Notes under the pieces: generated by a model
Told to the model about the DNA's origin: nothing
Seen by the model: only the letters and a program-made list of their open reading frames with translations
Database searches by the model: none
Part shown: one piece after another, positions 14,107 to 18,010 of the stretch
How the letters are laid out: each line of letters begins with the position of its first letter
How positions within the stretch are numbered: the first letter of the stretch is position 1
Translations under genes and position numbers: made by a program
Assembly (NCBI GenBank): GCA_017880745.1
Contig: JADGRR010000001.1
Span: 1 to 31,915 of the forward strand
Direction: 5' to 3'
Length of the DNA: 31,915 bases
Source of the DNA: Burkholderiales bacterium
GTDB lineage: Bacteria; Pseudomonadota; Gammaproteobacteria; Burkholderiales; SG8-39

Positions 14107-14784
14107 TCAGTCTTCACCCCGGGCCTGGAACACAAGATAATACTGGTTGGGGAGGAAGCGATGTTCGCCCTGGAGCCGGTATCCCGCCTTGGCCATTTCG
14201 GCCACCACGCGCTTGCCCGCGATGCGCTGGCTCGGCGGCGGTCCCATCGCGGATTTGGCGTTGAAGTCGACGATGGCGACGCGCCCGCCGGGTTTGAGCG
14301 ACTGCGCGAGTTTGCGAAAGTAGCCCTCGCGCTGCTCGATGTGGTGATAAGTGTCGACCATGAGGGCGAGATCGACCTTGCCCGGCAGGCGCGCATCGTC
14401 CGGCGCTCCCGCGACCGCGGTGAGATTGGCTAGGCCTTCGCGTCTGGCGCGGTCGGCGAGGTACTTCACCATGTCCGGTTCGATATCCACCGCGTAGACC
14501 CGGCCCTGAGGCACGAAATGCGCGAGGCGCACGGCGAAGTAGCCGGTGCCCGATCCTATGTCCGCCACCGTGGCATCGGGCTTGAGCGCCAGGGCCTCGA
14601 TCACCTGATGCGGCTTCTGCCAGGCATCGCGGCTGGGGTCGTCGAACACCTCGGCCCAGCGCTCGGCGCCGCCGAAGCTGTGCTGGTGGGTGTGGGGCGA
14701 CTGCGCCTGCGCCGGCCCGGGCCCGAGGCCGGCGCAGGCGAGTGCGAGCGTCAGAACCGCGGTGGACAGGGCGCGCGTCATCAT
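14107..14784 (-). CDS. Class I SAM-dependent methyltransferase with predicted signal peptide
   Basis: Motif [21 protein letters not shown]-terminal hydrophobic segment ending AQA, followed by a His-rich stretch HTHQH. Confidence 0.85.
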
Positions 14785-14893
14785 GTTTTCCGTTACTGGT
14801 CGACCGTCAGATAGACTATCCTAAACCTCATTCGCCCTGTGGGGGAACCCCGGCGCCGTCCGGCCGGGCGCGTAGCTGTCCACGACAAGTCGA

Positions 14894-14922
14894 TGGACTT
14901 ATGCACCCGGAGCCGGTAGACT
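14894..14922 (+). promoter_or_regulatory. sigma70-type promoter for prfC
   Basis: TGGACT-17 nt-TAGACT, 26 nt upstream of ATG 14949. Confidence 0.45.
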
Positions 14923-14948
14923 GCCCGCCTTTTCGCGCACCTGTGCCC

Positions 14949-16607
14949 ATGGCCGCCGCTGTCGAGCTTGTATCTTCCCCAACTGCTGAGGCCGACGCCG
15001 CGCGTGCGCCGGCCGAGCGGATTGCGCGCGAAATGGCGCGCCGCCGAACTTTCGGCATCATCGCCCACCCTGACGCAGGCAAGACCACGCTTACCGAGAA
15101 GCTGCTGCTGTTCTCCGGCGCGATTCAGCTCGCCGGCACGGTGAAGGCGCGCAAGAGCCGCCGTCACGCGACCTCGGACTGGATGGAGATCGAGAAGCAG
15201 CGCGGCATATCTGTGGCGAGCTCGGTGATGCAGTTCGAGTACCGCGGCTGCGTGGTCAACCTGCTCGACACCCCGGGGCACCAGGATTTTTCCGAGGACA
15301 CCTACCGCGTGCTCACTGCAGTCGATTCCGCGCTGATGGTGATCGACTCCGCCAAGGGCGTGGAAGAGCAAACGGTCAAGCTGCTGAATGTGTGCCGCAT
15401 GCGCAACACGCCGATCCTCACCTTCATGAACAAGATGGACCGCGAAACCCGCGAACCGCTGGCGCTGCTCGATGAAGTGGAGTCGGTGCTCAAGATCCAG
15501 TGCGCGCCGGTGACCTGGCCCATCGGCATGGGCAAGTCGTTCCGCGGCGTGTATCACCTGCTGCGCGACGAGATTTTGCTGTTCACCGCGGGCGAGGACC
15601 GCGCCGACCAGGAATTCGAGGCGATCGCGGGGATCGATAACCCGCGGCTGGCCGAGATGTTTCCGCGCGAGATCGAGCAGCTCAAGGCCGAAGTCGCGCT
15701 GGTGCGCAGTGCCATGCACCCGTTCGACCTCGGCGCCTTCCTCGACGGCACGCAGACGCCGGTGTTCTTCGGCTCGGCCGTCAACAACTTCGGCGTGCGC
15801 GAGATCCTGAACGCGCTGATCGACTGGGCGCCGGCCCCGCGCGAGCGCGACGCGACGCTGCGCATCGTGGCGCCGGGCGAACCGCGATTCTCCGGCTTCG
15901 TGTTCAAGATCCAGGCCAACATGGATCCGGCGCACCGCGACCGCATCGCCTTCCTGCGCGTGTGCTCGGGGCGCTTCGAGCGCGGCATGAAAATCAGGCA
16001 CCTGCGCCTCGACCGCGAAATCAAGGTGAACAACGTCGTCACGTTCATGGCCTCGAGCCGCGAGCAGGTGGAAGAGGCCTACGCCGGCGACATCGTCGGT
16101 CTGCCCAACCACGGGCAGATGCAGATCGGCGACAGCTTCTCCGAAGGCGAAGCGCTGCAGTTCACCGGGATACCCTATTTCGCGCCGGATTTTTTCCGCT
16201 CGGTCCGTATCCGCAATCCGATCAAGGTCAAGCAGCTGTACAAGGGCTTGCAGCAGCTCGGCGAAGAGGGCGCGGTGCAGGTATACAAACCCGTCCTCGG
16301 CGGCGATCTGATCCTCGGCGCGGTGGGCGTGCTGCAGTTCGAGGTGGTCGCGAGCCGCCTTGCGAACGAATATGGGGTCGATGCGGTGTTCGAGGGCACC
16401 CCGGTCACCTGCGCGCGCTGGGTGACGGGTGAGGACAAGCGCATGCTGGCCGAGTTCGAGAAGATGCTGGCGCACAACATCGCCCGCGATGCCGCCGGCA
16501 GCCTCGCCTACCTCTCGCCCAATAGCGTCAATCTGCAGCTGACGCAGGAGCGCTGGCCCAAGCTCAGGTTCCATGAAACGCGCGAGCACGCGCTGACGCC
16601 GGAGTGA
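14949..16607 (+). CDS. prfC: Peptide chain release factor 3
   Basis: [53 protein letters not shown] and [11 protein letters not shown] motifs. Confidence 0.96.
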
Positions 16608-16639
16608 ACAGCGGCGCGGCCGCGGCGAAGCCGCACATC

Positions 16640-16725
16640 AGAAGAGGAAGCTCCGCTCACACGGAGCCAAAAAAGTAAGCCCCGCTTGAGGCGGGGCGAA
16701 AAGGAAGCCCCGCATGACGCGGGGC
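16640..16725 (-). terminator. Three stacked intrinsic terminator hairpins facing the minus strand
   Basis: GCCCCGC-5-GCGGGGC at 16707-16725 then TTCCTTTT. GCCCCGC-5-GCGGGGC at 16679-16697 then TTACTTTTTT. GCTCCG-6-CGGAGC at 16650-16667 then TTCCTCTTCT (minus-strand reading). Confidence 0.7.
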
Positions 16726-16843
16726 CGGTGGCACCCCATTGCGGAAGTGCCGATGCCGTAGTTACGGCGCGTGCGGGGCTGGGCCCCGTTCGTAGGTGAA
16801 ACTAAAAGTCACGTTTCAGTCGATTTGCCTCCTTCTTAACTAC
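16699..16843 (-). ncRNA. Candidate small RNA (or tiny-peptide mRNA), ~145 nt
   Basis: Bounded by a near-consensus promoter and a terminator, contains four internal hairpins and AAGGAGG near the 5' end, and has no ATG ORF. Family not recognised. Confidence 0.55.
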
Positions 16844-16849
16844 ACTTAA

Positions 16850-16878
16850 TTTATAGACCCGGCGCGAGCGGAAGTCAA
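16850..16878 (-). promoter_or_regulatory. Strong sigma70-type promoter for the candidate sRNA
   Basis: Minus strand TTGACT (16878-16873)-17 nt-TATAAA (16855-16850). Confidence 0.7.
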
Positions 16879-16938
16879 GGCCGGCGAAGACGCGCATCGA
16901 GGTTTGGACCGGGCGCGACCTCAGGCTTCGGCTTGGCA

Positions 16939-16967
16939 TTGCCTCGGTCGCGGGCTTGGAGTAAATT
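16939..16967 (+). promoter_or_regulatory. sigma70-type promoter for bug-dioxygenase-rhodanese operon
   Basis: TTGCCT-17 nt-TAAATT. SD AGGAGG before ATG 17048. Confidence 0.5.
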
Positions 16968-17047
16968 GGCCGGTTACAAAAACAATGCTTGCCTGGCGCG
17001 CCGGAGTTTGTCCCGCGCCGGAGCAGGATCACCTAGGAGGGAAAACC

Positions 17048-18010
17048 ATGAAAGCAGCGTGGATTGCGGCAATCGCGCTTGCTGTGGCCGGGAGCGCGCT
17101 GGCGCAAGGCAGCTATCCGGCGCGCCCCGTCACCATGGTGGTCGGTTTCGCGCCCGGAGGCGGCACCGATACGGTGGCGCGCATCGTCGCCAAGAATCTC
17201 GGCGAGAGCCTCGGCCAGCAGGTGCTGGTCGAGAACCGCGCGGGCGCGGGCGGCTATATCGCCACCGAATATGTGGCTCGTGCGGCCCCGGACGGCTATA
17301 CGATACTGCTCGGCAACGTCGGCTCGCTCGCGGTAACGCCGCACATGATCGTCAGCCCCAGTTACGACCCATTGCGCGATTTCGCACCGATCACCATGGC
17401 GGTGGTGTTCGCCAACGTGATCGTGGTGCCGTCCTCGGTGCCGGCGCGGACGCTGGCCGAGTTTGTGAAGCTGGCGCAGGCGAAGCCGGGGACGGTCACC
17501 TACGGCACGTCCGGCATCGGCGGCGCCGGCCACCTCGCCGGCGAGCTGTTCAAGACCAGGGCAAACATCGACTTGGTCCACGTGCCTTACAAGGGCGGCG
17601 GTCCGTCGATGCAGGGCCTGCTGGGCGGTCAGGTCATGTCGAGTTTCGCGACGCCGGTGTCCGTAGTCGAGCACATTAAGGCGGGCAAACTCCGCGCGCT
17701 CGCCACCACCGGGCCGAAGCGGGCGGCGCTGCTGCCCGACGTGCCGACGGTGGCCGAGTCTGGCTATCCCGGCTTCGAGGCGATGAACTGGTACGCCTAT
17801 GTGGCACCGGCAAAGACGCCGAAGGAGATCATCGAGCGGCTGAACCGCGAACTGGTGAAGGCGCTCAACAACGCGGATGTCGCGGCCCTGCTGCACCAGC
17901 AGGGGCTCGAACCCAGCCCCAGTTCGCCCGCGGAGCTGGCCCGTTACATGGAGCGCGAGTACCAGACCTGGGGCAAGGTGGTGAAACAGGCCGGCATCAA
18001 GGCGCAGTGA
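17048..18010 (+). CDS. Bug/TctC-family (tripartite tricarboxylate transporter) substrate-binding protein
   Basis: YPARPVTMVVGFAPGGGTD, VENRAGAGG, PDGYTILL, YGTSGIGG..HLAGE and HVPYKGGG motifs. Signal peptide ending ALAQ. Confidence 0.92.
   Translation: MKAAWIAAIALAVAGSALAQGSYPARPVTMVVGFAPGGGTDTVARIVAKNLGESLGQQVLVENRAGAGGYIATEYVARAAPDGYTILLGNVGSLAVTPHMIVSPSYDPLRDFAPITMAVVFANVIVVPSSVPARTLAEFVKLAQAKPGTVTYGTSGIGGAGHLAGELFKTRANIDLVHVPYKGGGPSMQGLLGGQVMSSFATPVSVVEHIKAGKLRALATTGPKRAALLPDVPTVAESGYPGFEAMNWYAYVAPAKTPKEIIERLNRELVKALNNADVAALLHQQGLEPSPSSPAELARYMEREYQTWGKVVKQAGIKAQ

Follow-up and report, generated by a model that had tools for sequence, protein, structure and literature searches.

The spacer between prfC and a TctC/Bug-family gene of an uncultured member of the Burkholderiales very likely contains a bona fide small RNA (sRNA) gene on the minus strand. 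We analyzed a 31,915-nt stretch of DNA, referred to here as the window, which derives from a MAG of 612 contigs that is 77% complete. The predicted primary transcript is about 147 nt long and occupies 16698..16846 of the minus strand, with its start at 16843-16846 and its end at the U-tail of terminator 1. Covariance model R1 matches the window at 16699-16846 with 152 bits, and the fold energy of the sRNA is -60.2 kcal/mol (z = -2.8). The gene was previously uncatalogued, and its product forms a new family of a known kind of RNA. Regarding its function, we give roughly even chances to an Hfq-associated regulatory sRNA that acts in trans through a 5' module composed of GGAGGC and AUCGACUG. The evidence for the gene, its conservation and distribution, and the competing views of its function are presented below.

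Promoter and genomic setting of the transcription unit

The sRNA is preceded on the minus strand by a -35 box, CTTGACT, at 16873..16879 (TTGACT, 16878-16873) and a -10 region, TCTATAAA, at 16850..16857 (TATAAA, 16855-16850), which are 17 nt apart. The initial annotation had proposed a TTGACT-17-TATAAA promoter on this strand, and it was found exactly there. We compared it in a set of 38 distinct homologues drawn from same-genus genomes and metagenome contigs. In this set, TTGAC(T)-17-TATNNN and the 17-nt spacing between the two boxes are retained in 38/38 sequences; the -35 hexamer is TTGACT in 36 and TTGACA or TTGACC in two, and the -10 hexamer is TATAAA in 21, TATACA in nine, and another TATNNN sequence in eight. 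This promoter was not listed by the consensus promoter scanner because the scanner demands T as the last -10 base. The promoter spacer shows 57% pairwise identity among the 38 homologues, whereas GGAGG and the next 11 nt show 88%. Conservation sets in about 10 nt before the -35 box and does not extend past the terminators. Judging from the constant promoter and spacing, this difference in identity, and the limits of alignability, the locus is a self-contained minus-strand transcription unit under purifying selection.

The unit lies in a spacer (16608-17047) between two plus-strand genes. One of them, prfC (14742..16607, plus strand), encodes release factor 3 (Pfam GTP_EFTU, EF-G_D2, and RF3_C) and is convergent with the sRNA gene. 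The other (17048..18010, plus strand, ATG at 17048) encodes a TctC/Bug-family periplasmic receptor (Pfam TctC, 1.7e-78); it is the divergent upstream neighbor and is outside the sRNA unit. Besides the window itself, convergence with prfC was observed at 18/18 same-genus loci with flanking sequence and on 25/25 metagenome contigs (43/43), and the end of terminator 1 was 24-202 nt from prfC on the 25 contigs. Only about half of the homologous loci have a TctC gene upstream of the sRNA. In the window, the tail of the last terminator ends at 16640 and the prfC stop codon ends at 16607. The terminators were previously proposed to insulate prfC, which is plausible. A terminator scan of the window detected no plus-strand intrinsic terminator between prfC and the next gene, so that transcription could conceivably run on from prfC into the sRNA gene. 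The sRNA is absent from two genomes, G005 (L174) and G020 (L175), both of which have prfC; there, a same-strand gene directly follows prfC within about 100-130 nt, with no obvious terminator. As for prfC itself, its longest open reading frame begins with GTG at 14742 and encodes 621 amino acids, with about 90 residues preceding the GTPase domain, since the Pfam GTP_EFTU match begins at residue 100. An internal Met around 14949-15030, downstream of 14742, is probably the real start.

The host is, judging from the database records, an uncultured Burkholderiales genus, since those records with the same RNA carry only the names "Burkholderiales bacterium," "Betaproteobacteria bacterium," or "Proteobacteria bacterium." The genus is common in permafrost, soil, and sediment metagenomes, and permafrost metagenome runs were the best DNA holders of the sRNA sequence.

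Conserved elements of the RNA

Three hairpins follow one another in the 3' part of the sRNA on the minus strand. Hairpin 1 (CGGGGC-CCA-GCCCCG, 16774..16788) has 96% of alignment cells paired and two compensatory pairs; hairpin 2 (GCCGU-AACU-ACGGC, 16755..16768), whose sequence is almost invariant, has 99.5% paired and one compensatory pair; and hairpin 3 (GGCACUU...GGGGUGCC, 16730..16751), which contains CUUCC within its 5' arm and loop, has 99% paired and one compensatory pair. Together with terminator 1, the three hairpins are 96-100% paired with six compensatory pairs as assessed by RNAalifold and explicit pair counting, and slid controls were about 40% paired. The observed covariation, in a count that also took in a proposed 5' helix, was reached by 0/500 shuffles; covariation is limited because the stems are so conserved. 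The three hairpins, which had been predicted from the window at 16788-16774, 16768-16755, and 16751-16730, are thus present and accompanied by compensatory changes in relatives.

A fourth predicted hairpin, the first in the transcript (16820-16801), did not hold up in the same way: it is weak and particular to this genome. The related helix proposed across the alignment of the 5' arm was rejected, with only 67% of cells paired; the arm lacks a conserved fold, and single sequences fold there at between -6 and 0 kcal/mol (mean z, -0.67). RNAalifold also suggested a long-range pairing between GGA of the Shine-Dalgarno (SD)-like sequence and UCC of the CUUCCUUUU tail; we rejected it for want of covariation, the tail being variable with no compensatory changes. 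About 55 nt long, the 5' arm contains the GGAGGC and AUCGACUG motifs, followed by an AU-rich stretch. The SD-like sequence AAGGAGG (16828..16834, minus strand) had been noted at 16834-16828 and is indeed there, within the region lacking a conserved fold; in the 38 homologues, GGAGG is invariant at its first four positions and nearly so at the fifth. The second half of the module, AUCGACUG (16817..16824, minus strand), is near-invariant as well. In the most divergent homologue (G001, 97 bits), the module AAAGGAGGCAAATCGACTG...GACTTTTAG is retained letter for letter and the hairpin sequences differ, which identifies the 5' module as the most constrained part of the sRNA. The 3' end of 16S rRNA is not present in the window's MAG.

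In the window, a CUG-initiated frame of five codons and a stop (LKRDF; CTG AAA CGT GAC TTT TAG; 16802..16819, minus strand) begins 8 nt after the SD-like sequence. The initial annotation had pointed out these codons at 16819-16802 and equated the frame with the 16820-16801 hairpin. The frame is present as described, and its ends recur in the homologues; its coincidence with a hairpin is not a conserved feature. The start position reads CUG in 37/38 and CAA in one; AUG, GUG, and UUG do not occur there. The stop occupies codon 6 in 36/38, where TAA, TAG, and TGA interchange and TGG never occurs, and lies two codons later in 2/38. Codon 4 alternates among GAC, GAT, and GAA and codon 5 between TTT and TTC; codons 2 and 3 vary freely. 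Given the short CUG frame and its conserved stop, ribosomes may engage the sRNA, a point that tells against the preferred trans-acting model. A UGA in another frame (alignment columns 37-39) is also conserved, however, so that a conserved UGAYUUYURR motif accounts about equally well for the stop pattern, and AUCGAC upstream of the UG is as conserved as CUG. A longer frame of 16 codons, from (A/G/T)TG at alignment column 36 to TAA in the loop of hairpin 2, was also considered and rejected: 1-nt indels shift it in 13/38 homologues, and an NTG codon is missing at its start position in 8/38. Since 1-nt indels break this frame in about a third of the homologues, we regard the body of the sRNA as non-coding.

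Terminator 1 (16698..16726, minus strand) comprises a hairpin at 16726-16706 and the tail UCCUUUUC; it was found by the terminator scanner and is 100% paired in the 38 homologues, with two compensatory pairs. The scanner also found copy 2 (16697-16669, minus strand; hairpin 16697-16679). Copy 3 (16668-16640, minus strand; hairpin 16668-16649) is degenerate and ends in a T-rich tail. Only on the minus strand are the three hairpins followed by T-rich tails. The terminator unit is 28 nt long and tandemly repeated; repeat analysis of 16640..16697 gave a period of 28 with 2.0 copies. The triple terminator described earlier is correct for this genome but not general, because the homologues carry from one to five hairpin-plus-T-tail units in a variable tandem array. 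The terminator loops are nearly identical inside several lineages and different between lineages, for example five TTCAT loops in L188, five GTCAA loops in L187, and three GATTA loops in L181, indicating that expansion and contraction of the array were recent and independent. This variation between close relatives represents natural terminator amplification at a convergent gene pair.

Distribution, novelty, and expression

BLASTN matched the region in 19/22 further genomes of the genus; within the family, no genus besides this one gave a match. A pattern built from hairpins 2 and 3 only retrieved 25 metagenome contigs, all of which (25/25) matched R1 at 111-174 bits; a looser first pattern had matched at least 119 stretches, and among the 80 loci checked with the covariance model five were real. 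R1 scores in relatives range from 97 to 174 bits. Among 150 genomes of the family, R1 gave strong matches only in the host genus (6/8 sampled); matches in other genera of the family were weak (24-39 bits) and never beside prfC, and 150 genomes of the order yielded only three matches, at about 28 bits. On these searches, the sRNA is confined to one uncultured Burkholderiales genus, and the matches in other genera are weak and doubtful. The proposed independent minus-strand small-RNA gene, which is conserved in relatives and has a promoter and stacked terminators of its own, is well supported by BLASTN, the covariance model, and promoter conservation; the RNA contigs described below add weakly to it.

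The Rfam comparison suggested in the initial annotation was carried out, and no family of Rfam 15 matched any part of the window at the gathering score. Relaxing the cutoff to E ≤ 10 brought up only partial, terminator-like matches, including anti-hemB with 23.4 bits against a threshold of 49.5. The same comparison of the weakly related loci returned nothing relevant, and a literature search found no description of this RNA. The locus thus adds a well-delimited sRNA family absent from Rfam, from a kind of uncultured lineage in which riboregulation is almost unstudied.

The weak R1 matches correspond to two other RNA types. In sister genera, an RNA of about 250 nt follows a promoter of the form TCTTGACA-17-TAAnTT (L031:1200-1665 in G080, L032, L034-L038, L040, L044, L045, and L048). 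It has a conserved 5' domain (…GGGUUGCCCAGCCGCG…CCGGGCGACCGUCCGG…), a hairpin loop that displays AAGGAGG, three further hairpins, and a GCCCCGC terminator; no Rfam family matches it, and prfC is not nearby. The third RNA type occurs in three other genera (L205-L211 and L217; G164, G184, G035, G228, G216, G116, and G064) and has an almost exact hairpin 2 (GCGCCGUAACUACGGC; GCGCCGUAACUACGGCGC), a GGAGGC motif, and a terminator built in the same way. Its 5' hairpin and its locus differ from those of the window sRNA. Homology of both types with the sRNA is possible, and the third type may be a distant relative. Within the host genus, one genome (G010) has, at a contig end (L023, C140), a second, truncated copy of the promoter and 5' arm in addition to the main locus (L011, C298). 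The two copies are identical from the transcribed region on and differ around and upstream of the promoter; the second probably reflects strain heterogeneity or an assembly duplicate.

Two metatranscriptome libraries contained contigs derived from relatives. Contig X21 aligns with 16678-16819, and its end, at about 16841, is near the predicted start; contig X22 aligns with 16699-16790 with only two mismatches. Depth in these libraries was zero over the promoter, the upstream spacer, and 16606-16673. In a DNA-like run, whose library type is not on record, a single contig spans 16730-17300 continuously. This pattern fits a discrete transcript, as weak evidence, since the assembled contigs are unstranded, of low depth, and from other strains.

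Functional models and comparison with known systems

Among the three functions offered by the initial annotation, a trans-acting sRNA fits best and a CsrA-type decoy is disfavored. In the model that we prefer, the near-consensus sigma-70 promoter would start an RNA of about 147 nt at about 16843-16846, and the tandem intrinsic terminators would stop it just short of the convergent prfC. Its rigid 3' body would consist of the three hairpins and a terminator with a U-tail, and the hairpins, the AU-rich stretch, and the U-tail would confer stability and chaperone binding. The purine-rich 5' module would pair with pyrimidine-rich, CCUCC-containing sequences in other RNAs, possible partners being C/U-rich sRNAs or, in mRNA leaders, anti-SD segments by which ribosome-binding sites are masked. 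We infer the trans action, the binding to Hfq, and the nature of the partners from a free-standing conserved unit, a 5' module without a fold, U-tracts confined to the minus strand, and the presence of Hfq. Of the genomes of the genus, 21/23 encode Hfq, among them the window's own and 9/9 of the high-quality ones; ProQ is found in 0/23, and CsrA in 1/23 but not in the window's own genome.

Complementarity scans, by contrast, gave no target above background and count against this model. Ungapped complementarity with G-U pairs between the 5' module and the window's own genome (77% complete) did not exceed background, and the top matches were antisense to gene starts or inside open reading frames. 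RNAduplex comparison of the sRNA with the 5' regions of prfC and TctC was uninformative, and the best complement in prfC, CAGTCGATT (15319-15327), equaled the median of random segments. A resemblance of another kind was found at C555:3518-3550 (plus strand), where the translation-initiation region (TIR) of a Bug/TctC paralogue, GGAGGGAAATCGACGTG GTG AAA AAA, closely resembles the 5' arm of the sRNA, GGAGGCAAATCGACTG AAA. The idea that the 5' arm mimics Bug/TctC TIRs was rejected because 38 Bug TIRs share just a generic SD, and the AAATCGAC motif is not general among them. The likeness to the paralogue may be a clue to the evolutionary origin of the sRNA rather than to its function.

The alternative that retains most weight, although we consider it unlikely, is an RNA that engages ribosomes. 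Here, the SD would recruit the 30S subunit, and either the CUG minigene would be translated or the SD would serve as a 5' stabilizer or 30S decoy. The invariant AAGGAGG 8 nt before CUG provides good SD-start spacing and lies outside any conserved helix; the constancy of CUG (37/38) and of the stop position (36/38) and the codon-like third-position variation (GAC/GAT/GAA and TTT/TTC) point in the same direction. Nevertheless, no homologue has an AUG, GUG, or UUG start and one has CAA; a start codon would not explain the equal conservation of AUCGAC; codons 2 and 3 are unconstrained, and the UGA in the other frame may underlie the conservation of the stop. Furthermore, the absence of TGG among related sequences is statistically not compelling, and the longer 16-codon frame is non-coding, with indels in 13/38. 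Whatever the answer, a perfect SD with a CUG mini-frame offers a clean test case for SD-mimic, 5'-stabilizer, or minigene functions of sRNAs.

That the sRNA is linked to prfC without exception (43/43) suggests a possible cis relationship, which the trans model does not need. In such a relationship, which we judge rather improbable, the convergent promoter and RNA would set the 3' end of prfC and thereby tune the RF3 mRNA level, through transcriptional collision or through pairing with read-through prfC transcripts, and the terminators would block antisense transcription into prfC. The convergent arrangement persists at 18/18 and 25/25 loci even though the upstream neighbor changes in about half of them, the scan found no plus-strand terminator after prfC, and the terminator array reaches up to five copies, all of which suit this explanation. 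Against it, conserved 5' motifs and hairpins would be superfluous for a purely cis-antisense RNA, whose complementarity is automatic; synteny within one genus may be mere inheritance; and G005 and G020 have prfC without the sRNA. A further reading, in which the locus is an abundantly transcribed ribosome-directed minigene or 30S decoy rather than a base-pairing regulator, would be a long shot. In it, the consensus SD and the CUG-started pentapeptide frame, whose stop codon is strictly kept, would engage both ribosomes and termination factors. If it were true, the fixed position beside prfC would reflect a functional circuit for sensing or buffering termination, the capacity for peptidyl-tRNA drop-off, or the supply of free 30S subunits.

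It is very improbable that the locus is a non-functional relic, in which a decayed gene such as a Bug/TctC paralogue has left its promoter, leader, and initial codons fused to terminators. The 5' arm does look like ordinary Bug-gene TIRs, one paralogue having GGAGGGAAATCGACGTG before its start codon, and the frame in the window opens with K-R in the manner of a signal peptide. Yet the promoter, module, and hairpins are under strong purifying selection in 38 homologues, whereas neighboring non-coding DNA drifts; AAATCGAC is not general among the 38 Bug TIRs, and such an origin would be compatible with a present function. Finally, a protein sponge of the CsrB/RsmZ type, or one for another GGA-recognizing protein, has scarcely any probability: AAGGA is unpaired and the weakly matching RNAs of other genera show AAGGA(G/C) in a hairpin loop, but the single GGA motif together with the occurrence of CsrA in 1/23 genomes and not in the window's own largely refutes a decoy for CsrA, and ProQ is found in 0/23.

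Several known RNA classes resemble the sRNA in part. CsrB, RsmY, and RsmZ likewise carry GGA-containing purine motifs in unpaired RNA, but the window sRNA has one such motif and 22/23 genomes of the genus lack CsrA. GadY, at gadX-gadW, is a convergent cis-antisense sRNA at the 3' end of a gene, and the window sRNA gene similarly faces the 3' end of a protein gene in an invariant position. Unlike in that class, the terminators in the window end the RNA at least 33 nt before the prfC stop codon, so that an overlap would require read-through of prfC, and the motifs are conserved beyond the needs of antisense pairing. STAB-SD, the 5' stabilizer of the Bacillus thuringiensis cryIIIA mRNA, also places a consensus SD near a 5' end without a canonical start codon after it. 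By analogy, the SD of the sRNA could protect the RNA by pairing with 16S rRNA at its 3' end; STAB-SD belongs to a Gram-positive mRNA leader, whereas the present element belongs to a proteobacterial sRNA.

Dual-function and small-ORF RNAs include SgrS/SgrT, RNAIII/hld, and SR1/SR1P, and the E-peptide is encoded by a pentapeptide minigene in E. coli 23S rRNA. The sRNA shares with this group a strong SD properly spaced from a very short frame in a structured RNA, and its frame has the five codons of the E-peptide class. It differs in that its frame starts with CUG in all but one homologue and just the last two residues are conserved, and the predicted peptide does not resemble the hydrophobic E-peptide consensus.

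The Hfq-dependent trans-encoded sRNAs, to which we tentatively assign the RNA, are exemplified by RybB and MicA of E. coli and by ncS35 and h2cR of Burkholderia cenocepacia. Base-pairing sRNAs usually have C/U-rich seeds, and a G-rich, SD-like seed is atypical; the module of the window sRNA is purine-rich and SD-like rather than C/U-rich, and the sRNA matches no Rfam family in sequence or structure. In other respects it resembles this class, having an intergenic, free-standing gene with its own sigma-70-type promoter, a conserved 5'-proximal module that lacks a conserved fold, an AU-rich stretch, a 3' body with stable structure, and an intrinsic terminator ending in a U-tail, in a genus that encodes Hfq.
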